Shown piece by piece: positions 46,832-54,765 of a stretch of DNA of 64,000 nucleotides. The notes under the pieces are model-generated. The model worked only from the letters and a program-made list of their open reading frames with translations, was not told the origin of the DNA and did no database searches. Origin of the DNA: Candidatus Levyibacteriota bacterium (GTDB lineage: Bacteria; Patescibacteriota; Microgenomatia; Levybacterales; UBA12049). The DNA lies in contig DAIDHK010000006.1 in assembly GCA_027459725.1 (NCBI GenBank), positions 1,895 to 65,894 on the forward strand, given 5' to 3'. Numbering within the stretch: the first letter of the stretch is position 1; each line of letters starts with the position of its first letter. A program made the translations under genes and the position numbers.

Positions 46832-48157
46832 ATGTCCACTATTAAAGTTCCTCCACATAATGAAGAAGCAGAACAGAGTGTTTTAGGTGCAATTCTGATA
46901 GATAAAGAGGCAATTTCAGTGGTCTCGGGAATTCTCAGACCTGAACATTTTTATAGCGATCTTCATGCTTTAATTTATATAGCCATGTTGGATATTCATG
47001 AGGAGAGAAAGCCAATAGACGTTCTGACAGTTTCGGCACAGATAAAAAAACATGATAAAAATAAAACAGTTAGAAGTTCATACCTTAATGAGCTGGTCAA
47101 TGCAGTTCCTACTGCTGCCAATGTTGAAGAATACTCTCATTTGGTGAAAGATTTAGCTACAAAAAGAGCTCTAATTCACGCAGCATCAGAAATAGCCGAA
47201 TTAGGTTTTGAAGAAGATAAGGAGGTAAAAGATTTGCTTGATCGGGCAGAGTCGAGCATTTTTACTATCTCTCAAAGCAGTATCAAAAGAGATTTTATTG
47301 CCATTAAGGATACTTTGACAGAAAGTTTTGATCGTTTGGATGAATTACATCGTTTAGGAGAGGGATTAAGAGGAACAAAAACGGGCTTTTCTGATTTAGA
47401 TCGTATTTTATCAGGTATGCAAAAATCCAATCTGCTCATATTAGCAGCTCGACCTGGACAAGGGAAAACAGCACTGGTAGTGAACATAGCTCAGTTTATA
47501 GGTGTGATGGAAAAAAAAGCCGTGGCAATTTTCTCTTTGGAAATGAGTAAAGAAGAACTGGTTGATCGTTTAATGGTTGGTCAGGCAGATATCGATGCTT
47601 GGAAACAAAAAACTGGACGTTTGAATGAGGAAGACTGGACAAAACTATCGAACGCAATGGGTGAACTTGCCGAGGCACCTATTTTTATCGATGATACCCC
47701 TGGTATTTCTATTGCCGAGATGCGTAGTAAGGCGCGTAGGTTACAACTGGAGCATAAAGATTTAAGTTTGATAATCGTGGACTATTTACAGTTGGTGGAT
47801 CCTGGACAAAAATTTGAAGGACGTGTACAGGAAGTAGCCCATATCTCAAAGTCATTGAAAAATCTAGCTCGTGAGCTAAATGTGCCAGTTTTGGCTGCAT
47901 CACAGTTATCTCGTGCAGTTGAGCAGAGGACTGATCGTAAACCTCAATTAGCCGATTTACGCGAATCAGGCACAATTGAGCAGGATGCAGATGTGGTTAT
48001 GTTCATTTATCGGCCCGACATAGAAGGTAATCCCATTAACATTCCTACTAAATTATTGATAGCTAAACATCGCAATGGAGCTACTGGAGAAATTGATTTA
48101 TTGTTCCGGGGTGATCGTATCAAGTTCTACAGTGTTGAGAGACAGCAACAGGTATAA
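46832..48157 (+). CDS. dnaB: Replicative DNA helicase
   Basis: PPHNEEAEQSVLGAIL N-terminus; Walker A ARPGQGKTA, Walker B LIIVDYLQL, arginine finger region. Start taken at the ATG at 46832. Confidence 0.9.
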   Translation: MSTIKVPPHNEEAEQSVLGAILIDKEAISVVSGILRPEHFYSDLHALIYIAMLDIHEERKPIDVLTVSAQIKKHDKNKTVRSSYLNELVNAVPTAANVEEYSHLVKDLATKRALIHAASEIAELGFEEDKEVKDLLDRAESSIFTISQSSIKRDFIAIKDTLTESFDRLDELHRLGEGLRGTKTGFSDLDRILSGMQKSNLLILAARPGQGKTALVVNIAQFIGVMEKKAVAIFSLEMSKEELVDRLMVGQADIDAWKQKTGRLNEEDWTKLSNAMGELAEAPIFIDDTPGISIAEMRSKARRLQLEHKDLSLIIVDYLQLVDPGQKFEGRVQEVAHISKSLKNLARELNVPVLAASQLSRAVEQRTDRKPQLADLRESGTIEQDADVVMFIYRPDIEGNPINIPTKLLIAKHRNGATGEIDLLFRGDRIKFYSVERQQQV

Positions 48158-48287
48158 CAGCAGTTTTCCGCATTTAGCATTTTTGTCATTGTTGTCACCT
48201 TCATGTCAGGGAAATTACAGTAACTGTAATAAAAATGTCTATTTAAGGTCAAGTAAATTAATTATTTTTATTACAAAATACCTTTGC

Positions 48288-49349
48288 ATGATAGAAGGTA
48301 AAATTACACCCACACAAGTTGCAACCTTAGCTGCTCAAGATCATAGAGTCGGCTTATCATTTAATAATAAATTATATGGTGGAGTTAGTGGTGATGTAGT
48401 ACACGAAGGCTACTTACAACATTCTTTATCTCATGACAGACAAAAAGTAGTAATAAAAGTAGGCCCTGGAGTGGGAAATCGAGAAGTAACAGCGGCTAGG
48501 CGTATACATGCTCAAGCTCCTTCATTTCCTTTGATACAAGATTTACTTTCAGGATATGATTATGTAGTATATCCTTATTTATCAGGCGATACAATTGACC
48601 AAAGAGTAAGGGCAGGAGTTCCTGAATCAACAGAGGAATTCAGTATATTTGCCAGATTACACGCTCAGCTTTGGGAACAAACGCAAAAAGATGGAATATC
48701 AGTTTTAGATGGTTATCCTAAGAAATTGGAACAGACCAAAGAAATTCTATATAAGCTTGCGCTCAAGGATAATGATGGCAAAGAAATACCCGTTGCTGAT
48801 ATTGCTCATAGAGACTGGAGAGTAAATGGTAGGTCTATAGGTAGGTTAGAAGATGTGATTGATACGACTTCGGCAAATATTAGAAAGTCAGGTATGGGTG
48901 TTTTGACTCATGGTGATGAAGGAGCAGGGAATGCAATAAAAGAAAAAAATAGTGGAGACATAATTTTTATTGATCATGGATCGGCAGGGGTCAGGGCACC
49001 AGAAGAAGCAATTGCAAAAATTCTCTTGTGGTTTGATGCGACTAATGTCAATGGTAGGGGATATTCATTAAATTTGAATCCAAAAGGGGTAGAATTGCAA
49101 ACCAAAGAACAAACCAAACCGCATATTCACAGATCTGTTGCAGCAGCACAAACAGCATTGCAACCCTATCTCAAAGACCTTTCTTCTGATTCAGCGATTT
49201 CATCTTATATGATGGTTTATCTTTGGAGAGAGTTGCACTGGCTGGAGCGAAGAGGAAGGCAGGATGCGATGCCGTATTTACTAGCAAAATCTTTATCATT
49301 TGCGCCTGAGTTGCAGACTTCAGGTAGAGGACGTAGCAGCTATATTTAG
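48288..49349 (+). CDS. Protein-kinase-like-fold small-molecule kinase (APH/choline-kinase family)
   Basis: KLYGGVSGDVV (glycine-rich loop equivalent), VVIKVGPG (beta3 Lys), THGDEGAGNAI (HGDxxxxN catalytic loop), IFIDHGSAG (DFG-equivalent IDxG). Start taken at the first ATG after the dnaB stop. Confidence 0.5.
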   Translation: MIEGKITPTQVATLAAQDHRVGLSFNNKLYGGVSGDVVHEGYLQHSLSHDRQKVVIKVGPGVGNREVTAARRIHAQAPSFPLIQDLLSGYDYVVYPYLSGDTIDQRVRAGVPESTEEFSIFARLHAQLWEQTQKDGISVLDGYPKKLEQTKEILYKLALKDNDGKEIPVADIAHRDWRVNGRSIGRLEDVIDTTSANIRKSGMGVLTHGDEGAGNAIKEKNSGDIIFIDHGSAGVRAPEEAIAKILLWFDATNVNGRGYSLNLNPKGVELQTKEQTKPHIHRSVAAAQTALQPYLKDLSSDSAISSYMMVYLWRELHWLERRGRQDAMPYLLAKSLSFAPELQTSGRGRSSYI

Positions 49350-49356
49350 TGAGATT

Positions 49357-50373
49357 ATGTGGCAAGAACAAAACTCATTTATACCTAATGTCAGTGAATC
49401 TATTAATCCACGAACAGCATTATGGACTATAAATACACATCATGATATATCAGAGGTAATTGATCAACTGAGTAGTGATCTTAATAAAGTCAGCATTGTC
49501 GGATTTGATCTGGATGGTACAGTTTTAGGAAATGGAATAATTTTCCCGGGTAGTGGTATGGCATCTCTAAATGAAAAAGGTAAAAAGGTAACCATAGTTA
49601 GTGGTGCTGGGCCAGTGAGTATTAGAAAAAAAATAGTTGGAGCAGGACAGATTTTACGAGGAGATAAGAGGTTGGTGGAAATACCTTTTGCTGCTAACGA
49701 AGGATCTCAAATCTTTCATGCAGGAGCTTTAGATGGAGATCTAAGTCCAAATCATTTATTATATGAACAAGAAATCTCTTCACATGGAACGAGAGAGTTA
49801 TCAAGTTTTGCTCATGAATATCAAGATTTTGTTGACTTTTATGGTTTTTATCCCTCAGGTAGAACATCAGACCCTTTTAATTACGTTCTTTATACGAGAA
49901 GGGATTTGATGAGAGAAAAACTCATAGAAAAATATCCTAAATCAGTGATTACGGAAGATTTATTATACTTTTTAACTTTGTTAGAAGAACAAGGAGCATC
50001 TAAATTTATTGCTAAGTCTCAAAACGAGGATACTTTTAGAAAAGTTGATGCTTTTCATCATTTGCGTGGTGTAAATAACGAAGGGTTTTATAATATAGTA
50101 GACCGTGATGTTAATAAACTTACTGGATTGATTAAATTAGCAGGCTTGCATCATATGAGGACCGTTGCAAGTGAAGAATTAGCATATTTTGGTAATGACT
50201 GGAATGATAGAGAAGCACTGGTGGGGGCTAAGGTGGGATTTATAGTCGATTCAAAATCTACAATTAGAGATAGAATGGTCCCAGATTTATTGGCTTCTAA
50301 AAAAGGTGGACATCTTGTTGTACTTAATCCATCTTTAGTAAACGATTGCTTAACAGGAATTGCTAAGATATAA
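49357..50373 (+). CDS. HAD-superfamily phosphatase, Cof/IIB-like with large cap
   Basis: IVGFDLDGTV (motif I DxDGT) and YFGNDWNDREAL (motif IV GDxxND). Confidence 0.6.
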   Translation: MWQEQNSFIPNVSESINPRTALWTINTHHDISEVIDQLSSDLNKVSIVGFDLDGTVLGNGIIFPGSGMASLNEKGKKVTIVSGAGPVSIRKKIVGAGQILRGDKRLVEIPFAANEGSQIFHAGALDGDLSPNHLLYEQEISSHGTRELSSFAHEYQDFVDFYGFYPSGRTSDPFNYVLYTRRDLMREKLIEKYPKSVITEDLLYFLTLLEEQGASKFIAKSQNEDTFRKVDAFHHLRGVNNEGFYNIVDRDVNKLTGLIKLAGLHHMRTVASEELAYFGNDWNDREALVGAKVGFIVDSKSTIRDRMVPDLLASKKGGHLVVLNPSLVNDCLTGIAKI

Positions 50374-50380
50374 CTTAAAT

Positions 50381-51094
50381 ATGGCAAAACTTGAACAAAC
50401 TCTTTGGATTATTGATATTGATGGAACGATCATTAATGTGCATAAAAATCAAGTTCCTGCCTGGACAGAAGCACTACAACAGGCTTTTTCTATAACGCCT
50501 GATGAGTCGACTCTGGTGAGTTATTTCGGTAAACCATTTCAATCAGTTCTTAAAAATGTGGCGATGTATTATTCTATTTCAGAAAAAGAAATATCTAAAA
50601 AAGCGAAGTTTGCAGAAGAAATTTATGTCTCCTCAGTAAACAAACATTTGAAAAAGACAGGAGGTAGTATCCTGCCTGGAGCTGAAAACTTTCTGAGGTT
50701 ATTAGGAGAAAATGGAGCAAAAAGAGCCATTGCTACAGGTAATCCCCGACGTGAAGGTGAGTCTAAGCTTATATATTTTGACTTACTCAAATATTTCGAT
50801 ATTACTGTTTTTAGTGACAATCGGAAAGAGAGAATTGAAATGGTTGAGGAAGCAATTAAACAGGCAGAAAAGAAATATCATTTAAAATTAAGATCGCATC
50901 CGAAAAGAGTTGTTATTATAGGAGATTCTATTCATGATATTGAAAGCGCTAAGCTTATCTCTGCTTCAAGTATAGCAGTTACAACTGGTCATACTTCAAA
51001 ATATAAATTACAAATTGCTGGTGCTGATATGGTTCTCTCTGGTTTGAGCGATTTTTCATCAATTAAACAAAAGGTTGCATCACTAATAATTTAA
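50381..51094 (+). CDS. HAD-superfamily hydrolase, subfamily IA
   Basis: IIDIDGTI (motif I), AIATGN (motif II), VIIGDSIHDIESA (motif IV). Confidence 0.7.
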   Translation: MAKLEQTLWIIDIDGTIINVHKNQVPAWTEALQQAFSITPDESTLVSYFGKPFQSVLKNVAMYYSISEKEISKKAKFAEEIYVSSVNKHLKKTGGSILPGAENFLRLLGENGAKRAIATGNPRREGESKLIYFDLLKYFDITVFSDNRKERIEMVEEAIKQAEKKYHLKLRSHPKRVVIIGDSIHDIESAKLISASSIAVTTGHTSKYKLQIAGADMVLSGLSDFSSIKQKVASLII

Positions 51095-51179
51095 ATTTAC
51101 ATTCATAATTAGAATGACCCTGACATGAATCTGACATGTCTTGTAAGTTTCTCGTAACTTTTATACAATTGATCATCGC

Positions 51180-52475
51180 ATGGTCATTGAAGCTACATAT
51201 CCTATTAATTTTCGCAAAGCTGATGCTGCAAGTTTGGGTGAACAAATCAAAAATAGACAATCAGTAGTTTTAATTGGTTTGAAAAGAGTAGGTATCAGTA
51301 ATTTTTTGCGATTTTTTCTCTACCATAAGGATATTCTCTCCACGTATTTAGGTGCAGAAGAAAATCATTTGTTTATTCCTGTTGACTTGCATGATTTAAT
51401 TGAAAGGGAGCTTTTCCCCTTTTGGGTACTTACTTTAAAACGTGTTTGCGATTCAGCCATGGAGTTGCCTCTGGACGATAAGGTCAAGAAACAAATTGAA
51501 TCACAATTCCTCAACAGTATACAAACCAGGAATACATTTATTGTTTTTGATTCTGTGCGCAGTGTGATTATGAAACTATGTGAGTTTGGTTACATGCCTA
51601 CTATTTTCTTCATTCGTTTTGATCGTATGGAGGATGTCATGAATCAAGAATTTTTCTCCAACATTCAAGGACTAAGAGATGCAACGCATCAGCGTTTGTC
51701 CTATGTTTTTACGAGTTTTAAAAGTCTGGATATTTTGTTTCCCGAAATATTTAATAAACAGGCTCTAAATGTGTTTGCTAAAAATATATATCTACAGCCA
51801 GCAGAGGCCAAAGATATTGAAATAATTTATGAGACATATAGTGCAAAATATACTAAGCGAGACTTAAACAAAATAAAGAAGGATTTACTTAATTTGACAG
51901 ATGGTTATGTTCAATTTCTTCAATTAGGGTTGATTGCTCTGCATGAAAAACAATATCCTAAACTTTTACCAGAGGAATTATATGATTTGTTGTTGAATGA
52001 CGAAAGATTTATGCTACAGTCGGAAGAGATTTGGGAAAGTCTGTTACATACCGAGCGTGAAATTCTTCACAAAGTTAGCAACAATGAAGAACTTACTAAT
52101 ATTGAAATGGAAGAAGCTAAATATTTATTTGAAACCGGTATAATAAGGAGGAACTCTAGCCAATTAGAAATTTTCAGCCCCTTATTTCAAGGCTACATCT
52201 CGAGTCTAAAAAATCATACAACTTTAAAGGATGATTCAATAGAATTTTCTAAGAAAGAAAACCAATTGTTAAATCTACTTCTACAATATAAAGAGAATAT
52301 TGTTGATAGAGATCAGATTATCGAATTGGTTTGGCCCGAAGTGGAGTCTTTTGGTGTGACAGACTGGGCGATAGATAGATTAGTCTCTCGATTACGGCGA
52401 AAATTAAGAATGCAAAGATCTAATTACAAGATCAGTACAATCCGCACCCGGGGATACAAACTGACTGTGGTATAG
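51180..52475 (+). CDS. Putative regulator: N-terminal P-loop-NTPase-like domain (degenerate Walker A) + helical region + C-terminal OmpR/PhoB-type winged-helix DNA-binding domain
   Basis: VVLIGLKRVGISNF (GxxxxG[I]S, the Walker A Lys is missing), FFIRFDRMEDV (Walker-B-like). The C-terminal ENQLLNLLLQYKENIVDRDQIIELVW...AIDRLVSRLRRKL...TIRTRGYKL fits the trans_reg_C consensus. Confidence 0.5.
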   Translation: MVIEATYPINFRKADAASLGEQIKNRQSVVLIGLKRVGISNFLRFFLYHKDILSTYLGAEENHLFIPVDLHDLIERELFPFWVLTLKRVCDSAMELPLDDKVKKQIESQFLNSIQTRNTFIVFDSVRSVIMKLCEFGYMPTIFFIRFDRMEDVMNQEFFSNIQGLRDATHQRLSYVFTSFKSLDILFPEIFNKQALNVFAKNIYLQPAEAKDIEIIYETYSAKYTKRDLNKIKKDLLNLTDGYVQFLQLGLIALHEKQYPKLLPEELYDLLLNDERFMLQSEEIWESLLHTEREILHKVSNNEELTNIEMEEAKYLFETGIIRRNSSQLEIFSPLFQGYISSLKNHTTLKDDSIEFSKKENQLLNLLLQYKENIVDRDQIIELVWPEVESFGVTDWAIDRLVSRLRRKLRMQRSNYKISTIRTRGYKLTVV

Positions 52476-52476
52476 T

Positions 52477-52920
52477 TTATCTGTTGATTGCCTTGTAAAC
52501 AGGAGAGAGCATTATGATAATTAGTTTTTCTATAAAAAAACTAAATAATACAAAACCAATAATCATTCCACTCACTGCGATTAGTTTATTTAAATTGGAG
52601 ATTTCATTGCCTTGCTCTCGGTGGTGGCGTAAATACACTCCATAAATGACTTGTACAAAGATTATCAATCCTAAAATACATAGATAGAACCAACTAAGCC
52701 AGTTCTTTTGGTTAGTTAAGGCTTTATCCAGAGCTGTGAGCTGGGGGACTACAAAAAAAACAAATACAAGAGTAAATAAAGTTTCAATACTAGATAGAAT
52801 AAAAATGGCTGAAGAATATTTCTCCATTTTTCCAACGGTAGTGCGGATTCTAAAAAAGGAAGTTCGTTTCAAAAGAGACGTTTTAGTAACATTATTAGAG
52901 GCATTTGTTGTATTCTCCAT
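52477..52920 (-). CDS. Small membrane protein
   Basis: 147 aa, 3-4 TM. No motifs. Confidence 0.35.
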   Translation of the reverse strand: MENTTNASNNVTKTSLLKRTSFFRIRTTVGKMEKYSSAIFILSSIETLFTLVFVFFVVPQLTALDKALTNQKNWLSWFYLCILGLIIFVQVIYGVYLRHHREQGNEISNLNKLIAVSGMIIGFVLFSFFIEKLIIIMLSPVYKAINR

Positions 52921-53110
52921 AATTTTATTACAAGAATATACTTTTATAGTTTAAGCGATAAATTAGAAATAGACAACTACATAAAGTTACTATTTTTAAG
53001 CAGAAAATAAAAATGTAAAAGAATAATTAAGGGACAAGAAAATTTAAACTATATTTTATCTTGTTATATCGAAGAAGTCATTAACTTTAAATTTTGAATG
53101 TTAGGTCAAG

Positions 53111-53194
53111 TGCCGGGAGAGGGACTCGAACCCACACAGCCATTATAGCCAGTAGTTTTTGAGACTACCGCGTATACCATTCCGCCATCCCGGC
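53111..53194 (-). tRNA. tRNA-Leu (anticodon CAA), class II with long variable arm; 3' CCA not encoded
   Basis: Reverse complement reads GCCGGGATGGCGGAATGGTATACGCGGTAGTCTCAAAAACTACTGGCTATAATGGCTGTGTGGGTTCGAGTCCCTCTCCCGGCA. The acceptor stem is 7 bp, the anticodon loop is CUCAAAA, and the T-arm is GGTTCGAGTCC. The following bases are CTT. Confidence 0.85.
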
Positions 53195-53250: not shown

Positions 53251-54765
53251 ATGACATCTATGCAGTTTGAGATCTCCCAAAAAGCTCCACAAGACATAAA
53301 TTCCGATATTTTAGCAATTTATAGCTTTCAAGATGAAGAAAAAAAAGCTGAATTAGTCTGGAATGATACACTTTTACAAATTGACAAGTATTTAAATGGA
53401 CAGTTATTAAACAATTGTCTTAATGAAGGCTTTCAGGGTAAGTGGGGTAGTATATTTAGCATGTTTACCCTAGGTATGATTATCCCGAAAAAAATAGCCA
53501 TTATAGGATTGGGGAAGAAAAGTGAATTTGTCTTAGAAGATCTGAGACAGACGACTGGTCAGTTTATTAAGTCCATAAATAAAAAAAATAAGACAATAGC
53601 TATAATTTTGCCAAGTGGGACACTAGAAAATAGTAAAGAACTGCTTGATTCAGTAGTCCAAAGTGTAGAGTTGGCTAACTACGAATTTGACAAGTACCAT
53701 ACACAAAAAGATGAACAAATTAAATTATCGAATGTTCTATTTATTTTAGAAAAAGGTAAGGAAATATCTCCTTTGAACAAACAAATTAGTCATTCTCGTT
53801 TATATTCTCAAGCTGCAGTTTTAGCACGAAATTTGGTTAATGAGCAGCCAACCATTGCTACTCCGCATTATTTAGCAGAGTTGGCTAAGAGTATCGCTAA
53901 AGATAGTACTGAGATTAGCTGCAAAGTGTTTGATCGAGTTCAAGCAGAAAAGATGGGCATGCATGCTTTTTTGGGTATTGCAAGAGCCTCTACTATAGAA
54001 CCTAAATTTATTTTTTTAGAATATAAACCAAAGGTCAGTAAAAGTAAAAAGAAATTAGCGTTGGTAGGTAAAGGTATTACATTTGATAGTGGAGGTATAA
54101 ATGTCAAACCAGGCAATCACATGCAAGATATGAAAATGGATATGGCAGGGGCTGCTTGTGTATTGGGAGTATTTTCCGTTATCGCGGAGATAAAACCAGG
54201 TTTTTCGGTTATTGGATGCATCGCTGCTACACCTAACTTAATTTCTGGTAACTCAATTGTCCCAGGAGATGTTGTTAAAGCCTATAATGGCAAAACCATT
54301 GAGATTTTAAATACTGATGCAGAAGGTCGAGTAACAATGGCAGACAGTCTGTCTTATGCTGTAGAGCAAGGGGCGACTGAAATTATTGATTTTGCAACTT
54401 TGACTGGTGCAGCTGTTGTTGCTCTGGGTACGGATATAGCAGCTATGTTCTCAAATAATAAGGATTTAGCTCAAAAAGTGAAAACAGCAGCTTATGAGGC
54501 TGGAGAAAAAGTGTGGGAGCTGCCGCTTGAAAAAACATACAAAAAGTTGAATAAAAGTGAAGTGGCTGATGTCGCAAATATTCCTAGTGGTCACTATGCA
54601 GGGACAATTGCAGCAGCATTGTTCTTACAAGAATTTGTGGACGATAAACCTTGGGTACATTTTGACATTGCTGGGCCAGCCTTTGCTGATACTTCCTCGG
54701 GATTGCACCCAAAGGGTGGAACTGGATTTGGTGTGACTACTGTGTTAAAATTGTTAGAAGTATAA
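53251..54765 (+). CDS. pepA: Leucyl aminopeptidase (M17)
   Basis: VGKGITFDSGG, NTDAEGRVTMADSL and the other M17 metal-ligand motifs. Start taken at the ATG at 53251 (MTSMQFE...) rather than 53197, which abuts the tRNA. Confidence 0.85.
   Translation: MTSMQFEISQKAPQDINSDILAIYSFQDEEKKAELVWNDTLLQIDKYLNGQLLNNCLNEGFQGKWGSIFSMFTLGMIIPKKIAIIGLGKKSEFVLEDLRQTTGQFIKSINKKNKTIAIILPSGTLENSKELLDSVVQSVELANYEFDKYHTQKDEQIKLSNVLFILEKGKEISPLNKQISHSRLYSQAAVLARNLVNEQPTIATPHYLAELAKSIAKDSTEISCKVFDRVQAEKMGMHAFLGIARASTIEPKFIFLEYKPKVSKSKKKLALVGKGITFDSGGINVKPGNHMQDMKMDMAGAACVLGVFSVIAEIKPGFSVIGCIAATPNLISGNSIVPGDVVKAYNGKTIEILNTDAEGRVTMADSLSYAVEQGATEIIDFATLTGAAVVALGTDIAAMFSNNKDLAQKVKTAAYEAGEKVWELPLEKTYKKLNKSEVADVANIPSGHYAGTIAAALFLQEFVDDKPWVHFDIAGPAFADTSSGLHPKGGTGFGVTTVLKLLEV

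Follow-up and report, generated by a model that had tools for sequence, protein, structure and literature searches.

A predicted transcriptional regulator of Levybacteria in which a degenerate ATPase-like domain precedes an OmpR-type winged helix

The regulator gene and its homologues

The window, that is, the whole 64-kb stretch of DNA analysed here, contains a gene for a putative transcriptional regulator, which is preceded by three co-directional genes encoding a putative small-molecule kinase, a Cof-type HAD phosphatase-like protein and a HAD-IA phosphatase-like protein (Table 1). Patescibacteria (CPR) have tiny genomes and are mostly uncultivated, and to our knowledge almost nothing is known about their transcriptional regulation.

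Table 1. Positions in the window of the regulator gene, the domains and motifs of its product, the predicted regulatory sites and the predicted target genes
Feature	Position	Strand	Remarks
Operator O2 (predicted), CTGTAAT-TTCC-CTGACAT-GAAG-GTGACAA	48192..48220	-	three 11-bp units
Putative APH-fold small-molecule kinase gene, predicted target	48288..49349	+	start taken at the ATG at 48288 instead of 48075, where the longest ORF begins
Cof-type HAD-IIB phosphatase-like gene, predicted target	49300..50373	+	Pfam Hydrolase_3, E 8e-8; start uncertain
HAD-IA phosphatase-like gene, predicted target	50360..51094	+	Pfam HAD_2, 78.5 bits
Operator O1 (predicted), CTGACATGAAT-CTGACATGTCT	51120..51141	+	two exact 11-bp direct-repeat units directly upstream of the regulator promoter
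Sigma-70-like promoter, TTGTAA, 17 nt, TACAAT	51141..51169	+	consensus scan; ends 10 nt before the ATG
Regulator CDS	51180..52475	+	431 aa (stop codon included); ORF list
P-loop alpha/beta core, aa 1-205	51180..51794	+	strands 28-32, 62-69, 138-145, 174-179, 200-204
Altered Walker A, G33-L-K-R-V-G-I39-S40 (GMKRVGISNFLR), Lys replaced by Ile	51276..51299	+	invariant in the family; aligns to GIRRVGKS of PAB2304
Altered Walker B, I142-F-F-I145-R146-F-D148-R149	51603..51626	+	MAFFT and HMM alignments
Sensor-1-like strand, S-Y-V-F-T178-S	51699..51716	+	model strand 174-179; T178 99% conserved
Helical lid, aa 210-256, with invariant G242	51807..51947	+	model
Internal helical/winged-helix module, aa 264-331	51969..52172	+	
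Linker helix, aa 334-347	52179..52220	+	model; followed by a low-confidence hinge, aa 346-352, pLDDT <50
OmpR/PhoB-type winged-helix DNA-binding domain (Trans_reg_C), aa 353-428	52236..52463	+	Pfam
Recognition helix of the Trans_reg_C domain, aa 395-411			invariant D-W-A-x-D-R-L

A preliminary description of the gene, made from the sequence, had proposed that an ATPase-like N-terminal domain is fused to a C-terminal Trans_reg_C domain. The C-terminal assignment was confirmed: Trans_reg_C (PF00486) scored 58.7 bits, which is above the Pfam gathering threshold of 26.2, and the fold of the domain is that of a winged helix, including the recognition helix and, at the C-terminal end, the beta-hairpin wing. 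The PDB sequence matches of the regulator were DNA-binding domains of the ToxR and PhoB families, with PhoB as the best match of its own DNA-binding domain, and matches in PHROGs were confined to this domain. For aa 1-340 there was no match in Pfam, NCBIfam or PADLOC. Response_reg was not matched either, and the response-regulator models of NCBIfam aligned by their C-terminal parts only and far under the cut-off; a phospho-acceptor Asp was not found in the regulator, nor a partner histidine kinase nearby. Further, Pfam gave no match to BTAD, TPR or GerE, no repeat-type sensor domain (TPR, WD40, LRR, SUPR) was detected by Pfam or in the structural model, and the DNA-binding domain ends the protein. 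The gene product is a transcription factor with an ATPase-like module standing where a receiver domain usually precedes the PhoB/OmpR-type domain.

A search of 5.8 billion proteins resulted in 1498 matches, with a cluster representative 100% identical to the window protein. The best 120 of the 1498 were all full-length proteins of approximately 430 aa, which align along the whole length of the regulator at approximately 50% identity; the named members among these 120 belong to Candidatus Levybacteria or Patescibacteria, and their only annotation is "helix-turn-helix domain-containing protein". When aa 1-340 alone were used in an exhaustive HMMER search, 404 clusters at 50% identity were obtained, and the family was found in 214 species-level genomes, chiefly of Levybacteria. 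The homologues fall into a near tier with the Walker A sequence G-[MIA]-[KR]-[RK]-V-G-I-[SN] and a distant tier of 21-27% identity with the canonical GxxGxGK[ST]. The architecture of the distant tier is the same, namely weak matches to AAA_22, AAA_16, ATPase_2, nSTAND1 and AAA_35 followed by a C-terminal Trans_reg_C, and the gene contexts of these relatives suggest that they belong to larger, non-CPR genomes.

The arrangement had been thought to be uncommon. This holds in the sense that it is uncharacterised, since the family was not characterised previously, its N-terminal domain has no Pfam model, and neither this architecture nor a glycolysis regulator of CPR was described in the literature that we searched. 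It does not hold with respect to abundance, given the approximately 400 clusters, the 214 genomes and the sister proteins with an intact Walker A motif and the same architecture.

Fold of the N-terminal domain and its altered Walker motifs

The AlphaFold2 model calculated from the family alignment (pLDDT 86.8, pTM 0.76) comprises a five-stranded alpha/beta core, a lid, a helical/winged-helix module, the linker helix, the hinge and the OmpR-type domain. Its structural neighbours (scores in brackets) were the "Walker-type ATPase" PAB2304 (PDB 2qen; 20.1, with 304 residues aligned), an NB-ARC resistosome (17.4), CED-4 (17.3), archaeal ORC/Cdc6 (15.3), SSO1545 (15.2), MalT (13.3) and the AAA+-like domain of Sir3 (12.6), while OmpR-family DNA-binding domains (11-12) matched the C-terminal domain. 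Foldseek independently agreed with an AAA+/STAND-type fold of the N-terminal domain. In the model, the three-layer alpha/beta core with its helical lid resembles members of the P-loop NTPase family, and the nucleotide-binding, helical and winged-helix domains make up a tripartite NOD of the STAND type, in line with the ATPase-like character proposed previously.

PAB2304 and SSO1545 (PDB 2fna) represent the "archaeal ATPase" family ATPase_2 (PF01637); in both proteins the Walker A Lys is preserved and an OmpR-type domain is lacking. The window protein is only approximately 14% identical to them and has no Pfam match to PF01637, and its canonical relatives score 26.9-27.8 bits against a cut-off of 33.2. 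A sequence profile of the N-terminal domain alone finds 2qen weakly (E 0.049), and in the local alignment of this profile GMKRVGISNFLRFFL stands opposite GIRRVGKSSLLRAFL, which indicates that the P-loop is of the ATPase_2 type and that the change from Lys to Ile alone is derived. The fold and the P-loop type stem from the ATPase_2 lineage, although the sequence definition of this family is not matched. With regard to the GxP motif, which STAND NTPases have in their helical domain, only three residues of the N-terminal domain, among them G242, are invariant across both clades; around G242 the window protein has D-G-Y-V without Pro, whereas the canonical relatives have GGHP.

The replacement of the Walker A Lys by Ile, noticed already in the single sequence, proved to be family-wide rather than due to local decay. 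The motif does not conform to GxxxxGK[ST], and Ile is fixed in the clade. Similarly, the Walker B motif departs from hhhhD[DE]: the canonical hhhhD-E-F-D of the relatives aligns here with I145 at the position of the Asp and R146 at that of the Glu. The position of the Mg-coordinating Asp holds a variable hydrophobic residue, while R146, F147, D148 and R149 each show a conservation of 99% or more within the Ile clade. The I39/R146 state was present in 173 of 245 aligned homologues and the Lys was kept in approximately 34; R, L, C and Q variants are scattered among the aligned homologues, indicating several independent losses. An example is a 781-aa fusion, in which a Ser/Thr kinase is joined to the NTPase module and Trans_reg_C. 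Since Ile replaces the Walker A Lys and Ile-Arg replaces the Walker B Asp-Glu, the module is predicted to be unable to hydrolyse ATP. That the N-terminal domain is not an active ATPase, as had been supposed, is well supported by these alignments, in which all three residues are replaced throughout the family and kept in distant relatives.

We consider it highly improbable that the protein is nevertheless an active NTPase with non-canonical residues, in which, for example, K35 or R36 takes over from the Walker A Lys and the catalytic acid is D148. These three residues are nearly invariant, but the K/R-R pair at positions 35-36 is ancestral in the P-loop of the ATPase_2 type, D148 is found also in canonical relatives with an intact Walker B, and the Walker B Asp has given way to the variable residue mentioned above. 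Compensation for the lost Lys by K35/R36 was rejected, because the same basic pair stands beside the Lys in PAB2304 (GIRRVGKS). An alignment with R146 opposite the Walker B Asp was rejected as well, since in both alignments I145 occupies the position of the Asp and R146 that of the Glu.

Residues 33-44 are the most conserved 12-residue segment of the protein, with a mean entropy of 0.32 bits in the 173-member Ile clade (position 39 is fixed by the definition of the clade, and without it the value is still approximately 0.35 bits), as compared to 0.37 bits for the DNA recognition helix and 1.77 bits for the protein mean. In 30 of the best 120 homologues, G33, K35-R36-V-G-I-S-N-F-L-R44, F147-D148-R149 and T178 were invariant, and the anion-hole residues G33, G38 and S/N40 are kept. 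A P-loop which is the most conserved segment points to a working pocket or interface and not to a relic or an inert scaffold. At the sequence level, this argues for a qualification of the previous reading of the domain as a nucleotide-binding-incompetent scaffold, as the pocket or interface may still be functional.

Pseudo-ATPases of eukaryotic chromatin and replication are the AAA+-like domain of Sir3 (PDB 3te6) and degenerate ORC subunits. Like Sir3, the N-terminal domain could be a ligand-free scaffold, i.e. a constitutive module for oligomerisation or protein interaction, and DNA binding would then be unregulated or regulated by protein abundance. This is unlikely in our opinion, since the P-loop itself, and not merely a surface patch, is the most conserved part of the protein, and since an intact glycine-rich loop with a preserved anion hole would have no obvious use in a scaffold. 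The sequence conservation, which unlike in Sir3 and ORC is highest in the glycine-rich loop, suggests instead that an anion or ligand pocket was retained.

Tandem repeats upstream of the regulator gene

The predicted operator O1 precedes a sigma-70-like promoter, which with its transcription start, predicted approximately 3-4 nt ahead of the ATG, would be near-leaderless, and the predicted operator O2 is located within the 130 nt that separate dnaB from the putative kinase gene. With a position weight matrix (PWM) derived from other genomes, O1 reached 22.8 bits, the best score in the 64-kb window, as compared to 18.6 bits for the best of 30 shuffles. The second and third scores in the window belong to O2 (18.5 bits at 48193, which is about the shuffle maximum, and 12.0 bits). 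The consensus of the operator is the 11-bp direct repeat C[T/A]GACA-N5-CCTGACA, in its detailed form C[T/A]GACA-nnAn-CCTGACA.

The core of the repeat was analysed in 77 homologous loci from different species by comparison of the 200 nt upstream of the gene with the remainder of the same loci. For TGACA-N6-TGACA, which has a period of 11, nine exact matches were found upstream and four in the background, corresponding to a 120-fold enrichment per kb, and when one mismatch was allowed there were 40 matches in 32 loci (40-fold enrichment). For each of the periods from 8 to 10 and from 12 to 14 bp, only 0-6 matches were obtained, and the ratios were between 0 and 18, the higher of which are due to single matches. 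A period of 22 was enriched 18- to 20-fold in these loci, which suggests arrays of at least three units. The orientation of the site was that of the gene in 37 of the 40 sites, and positions outside the selected core were conserved as well (C+10 in 31, A+7 in 23 and C+9 in 20 of 32 sites).

In 41 of 79 loci, the 200 nt upstream of the gene contained a site scoring 15 bits or more, as compared to 0.3% of the 370 control windows. Since the sites used for the PWM had been chosen beforehand for the presence of TGACA, there is some circularity in the scores of the 32 loci concerned. Thus, only about half of the loci have a strong site. The distances between site and start codon cluster at 60-69 nt and 85-90 nt, i.e. 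two units apart, and 61 of 66 strong sites are intergenic. In the homologous loci, TTGnnn follows the site after 4-10 nt, and TACAAT or TAAAAT is found 6-12 nt before the ATG, which suggests near-leaderless mRNAs. In the loci of the canonical-Walker relatives, which have different recognition helices, no upstream site was found. The tandem TGACA repeats with a period of 11 bp are a sequence feature of 41 of 79 genomes, and their binding by the regulator is a prediction.

As the link between protein and repeats is predicted, the repeats could have another binder: they could be the site of a different factor, or a feature of promoters specific to the lineage, with the targets of the regulator located elsewhere. 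TGACA resembles the -35 consensus, and the third upstream unit is often CTTGAC. However, the enrichment is restricted to periods of 11 and 22 bp, the proximal unit has CC and not TT ahead of TGACA, and a separate pair of -35 and -10 regions is located downstream of the repeats. Moreover, the sites accompany the gene in approximately 40 genomes at approximately 50% protein identity with an invariant recognition helix, they are missing from the relatives with different helices, and a site composed of direct repeats in tandem, spaced by one helical turn, is what would be expected for the OmpR/PhoB family. We therefore regard another binder as quite unlikely.

In their DNA-binding domain, PhoB/OmpR response regulators are homologous to the window protein, and the predicted operator, with two to three direct repeats at 11-bp spacing near the -35 region, is also of their kind. 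The pho and pmrA boxes have been described as direct repeats at 11-bp spacing next to -35, and OmpR/PhoB-family proteins as binding to direct repeats in the form of head-to-tail dimers or higher oligomers (PMC10570014). Response regulators have a REC domain, whereas the regulatory domain of the window protein has a P-loop fold.

The unit of the E. coli pho box is CTGTCAT, from which the CTGACAT unit found here at 11-bp spacing differs by one base, and some sites have TGTCA as their distal unit. Together with the best match to PhoB and the common occurrence of phosphatase genes (HAD, Inositol_P, FBPases) among the flanking genes, this would be compatible with a PhoB-like phosphate regulator, the dead P-loop of which senses Pi or polyphosphate and the regulon of which consists of phosphate-recycling phosphatases and phosphotransferases. 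Such a function is decidedly improbable, because in approximately 85 loci neither pst nor phoU was found beside the regulator or the sites, and the dominant neighbours, FBA, PGK, HK and PGI, are untypical of a Pho regulon.

Neighbouring genes and proposed mode of action

The search for homologues and their conserved neighbours, recommended in the preliminary description, revealed a conserved family with leuS and glycolytic or gluconeogenic genes as recurrent neighbours. Downstream of the regulator, leuS was found in 38 of 67 loci, and among the divergent upstream genes within 5 kb in 65 loci there were 20 PGK, 13 FBA, 8 HK and 7 FBPase genes. Among the genes directly upstream are PGK, FBA, FBPases of three types without homology to one another, PfkB, invertase and GDE, and also DUF4012 (in 9 loci) and numerous small ORFs which have no annotation. 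Recurrent divergent ORFs of 90-110 aa beside the regulator were considered as a possible family and rejected, since they are not conserved; in all probability they are spurious or evolve fast. Where sites occur at a distance from the regulator, they adjoin genes for FGGY kinase, HAD hydrolases, glycosyltransferases, HK and PGI, in two genomes for FBPase_3, and further a PfkB/Hydrolase_3 operon, glutamate dehydrogenase and SpoIID. Approximately half of the loci have no recognisable carbohydrate gene nearby. From these gene contexts, a regulon is predicted with sugar-phosphate metabolism as its theme, although not exclusively, and the gene-order signal, above all that of the downstream LeuRS gene, may partly reflect inherited synteny rather than co-regulation.

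In the 64-kb window there is no FBA, PGK, HK or LeuRS gene, and the glycolytic linkage was seen in other genomes. The kinase gene product matches Pfam APH with an E of 0.012 only, so its family assignment is weak; in a pairwise comparison it was 22% identical over 333 aa (E 6e-8) to the APH-family neighbour in the closest relative, L009. Matches of the Cof-type HAD protein to the NCBIfam Cof subfamily, and of the HAD-IA protein to NCBIfam phosphoglycolate and sugar phosphatases, were all under the cut-off. In L009, the regulator of which is 73% identical, the regulator gene shares one common operator with the kinase gene and a HAD gene, which lie in divergent orientation to it. The orientation of the site and its distance to the kinase start are kept (68 nt in the window and 74 nt in L009). 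Rfam detected only tRNA near the locus.

Weak or borderline nSTAND1 matches in distant relatives, one of which lies beside a TCAD9/APH gene, could point to a component of an nSTAND-type conflict or defence system. The probability of this is practically negligible, since PADLOC gave no match, no effector domain was found, the neighbourhood is a conserved housekeeping one in 214 species (LeuRS, glycolysis genes, RuvABC, L25), and the sequence is highly conserved rather than rapidly diversifying.

Based on these observations, we favour, with some reserve, the view that the protein is an autoregulated one-component regulator of sugar-phosphate metabolism, in which the dead STAND/AAA+-like module serves as a hydrolysis-independent sensor or oligomerisation switch. 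The C-terminal winged helix of the PhoB/OmpR type would bind the tandem 11-bp repeats C[T/A]GACA-N5-CCTGACA as head-to-tail dimers or higher oligomers, in the fashion of the OmpR/PhoB family. Autoregulation is proposed because the repeats lie 4-10 bp upstream of the gene's own -35 region, and it would most likely be positive; the element is found at activator distance from the regulator's own promoter and also beside carbohydrate genes. The same repeats may steer the adjoining sugar-phosphate genes, in the window those for the kinase and the two HAD phosphatases and in most relatives those of a divergent FBA-FBPase-PGK-hexokinase cluster, together with those for PGI, the FGGY and PfkB kinases and FBPase_3. 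The sites beside divergent genes are inverted relative to these genes. Such an orientation is unusual for OmpR-type activation, and the inverted sites could mediate repression or have no effect.

The N-terminal 340 aa represent an ATPase_2/STAND-like NOD, which would replace the receiver domain as the switch for pairing of the DNA-binding domains and work without hydrolysis. Effector-driven multimerisation of STAND regulators has been described (PMC6468293), and the proposed switching could be analogous to it, minus the hydrolysis. The effector is probably a phosphorylated small molecule, either a nucleotide or a glycolytic intermediate. It is tempting to speculate that the dead P-loop itself has come to sense a phosphorylated metabolite directly and independently of Mg, examples being fructose-1,6-bisphosphate, other intermediates of glycolysis and the Pi/adenylate charge, and we mention this more specific idea only tentatively, as its probability is rather low.

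This analysis is of interest for several reasons. New here are the assignment of the fold, the list of lost catalytic residues together with sister proteins in which the motifs are intact and which can be used for comparison, the predicted operator with the layout of its promoter, and genes of central carbon metabolism as a candidate regulon. The family is a clean natural case of a P-loop NTPase turned into a non-enzymatic regulatory module, with the P-loop under the strongest selection, and thus bears on the evolution of pseudo-ATPases and on STAND-like switching without hydrolysis. If the more specific idea of the P-loop as a direct metabolite sensor is true, the protein would represent a new one-component class, with a STAND/AAA+ NOD and no accessory sensor domain in place of the receiver, and the regulator would be the main transcriptional switch of glycolysis and gluconeogenesis in a whole CPR lineage largely without classical regulators. 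Last but not least, the predictions can be checked with recombinant protein in a culture-free manner and provide an entry point into the transcriptional control of CPR bacteria.

Among the known systems, the protein most resembles in its working a transcription regulator of the STAND type, in a minimal form and with a pseudo-ATPase as its core. It is not a response regulator, since it has no REC domain. With AfsR and the SARP-STAND proteins it shares the combination of an OmpR-type winged helix and a STAND NTPase in a single polypeptide. AfsR, which has kept functional Walker motifs, starts with the DNA-binding domain and BTAD, followed by NB-ARC and TPR; the reverse order in the window protein, already pointed out from its sequence, and the absence of BTAD and TPR exclude it from this group. 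MalT and the LAL regulators likewise combine an N-terminal NTPase with a C-terminal DNA-binding domain, but their domain is a LuxR-type HTH, they have a large SUPR/TPR sensor and they depend on ATP binding, whereas the window protein has an OmpR-type domain and no sensor repeats or sensor domain, and has lost the catalytic residues; thus it does not belong to MalT/LAL either. CggR and Cra/FruR are similar in that a regulator adjoins glycolytic or gluconeogenic genes and plausibly responds to sugar phosphates, which for the window protein is suggested by gene context only; they belong to unrelated families (DeoR/SorC and LacI types) with other operators and are functional analogues only.

Predicted operators and the start of the putative kinase gene

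The longest open reading frame of the putative kinase, the weakly assigned APH-fold gene that is a predicted target of the regulator, starts at position 48075 and overlaps the 3' end of dnaB, whose stop codon lies at 48157. The first approximately 70 codons of this frame appear junk-like, and the true start is likely the ATG at 48288. A start at 48288 leaves an intergenic region of 130 nt, which contains the predicted operator O2.

In a few genomes (loci L027, L028, L031 and L070), the distal unit of the predicted upstream operator is TGTCA and not TGACA. Because of this exchange the sites are partly palindromic (CCTGTCAGG...CCTGACA), and they score on both strands.

Genes flanking the regulator and its homologues

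DUF4012 is present in nine immediate upstream neighbours of regulator homologues. Directly upstream of the regulator, a co-directional ORF of about 790-890 aa (about 2.4-2.7 kb, plus strand) was found at nine loci (L017, L021, L029, L030, L035, L042, L047, L059 and L061). Since both number nine, these ORFs are presumably the DUF4012 proteins.

At the 3' side, the regulator of the window faces a gene for a predicted membrane protein, which ends one base past the regulator stop codon (see the table below). A counterpart of 139 aa occupies the equivalent position in the closest relative (L001). Among known families, the 147-aa protein matches only MAG0110, a membrane-protein family, and does so weakly (E 0.003).

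A short way further downstream lies a tRNA-Leu(CAA) gene. In most relatives the conserved gene downstream of the regulator encodes leucyl-tRNA synthetase; this correspondence is possibly a coincidence. For the adjacent M17 leucyl aminopeptidase, an in-frame ATG at 53251 (MTSMQFEIS...) seems a more plausible start than the listed TTG.

Features 3' of the regulator and the flanked locus of a distant relative
Feature	Position	Strand	Remark
Predicted membrane protein, 147 aa	window 52477-52920	-	convergent with the regulator
tRNA-Leu(CAA) gene	window 53110-53194	-	ARAGORN and Rfam
M17 leucyl aminopeptidase ORF	window 53197 (listed start, TTG)		directly after the tRNA gene
Canonical-Walker relative with flanking genes	L089:3276-8196		

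Distant relatives and taxon names

The distant relative P0242 (781 aa) combines an N-terminal Ser/Thr protein kinase domain with the NTPase module and Trans_reg_C. Its Walker A motif reads GFYGVGLS, with Leu in place of Lys; the lysine has thus been lost independently in this three-domain architecture. At locus L089, a relative with a canonical Walker motif is flanked on one side by a TCAD9/APH-type kinase with a PNP_UDP_1 gene and on the opposite side by an Inositol_P-family phosphatase, an arrangement which echoes the kinase-plus-phosphatase neighbours of the regulator in the window.

Many contigs encoding the Levybacteria-type regulator (L011, L016, L023-L027 and others) are titled "uncultured Gammaproteobacteria bacterium", and further ones Sulfotelmatobacter or Acidiferrales. 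In these public records the taxon names appear to be placeholders or misassignments; the gene contexts on the contigs are CPR-like.
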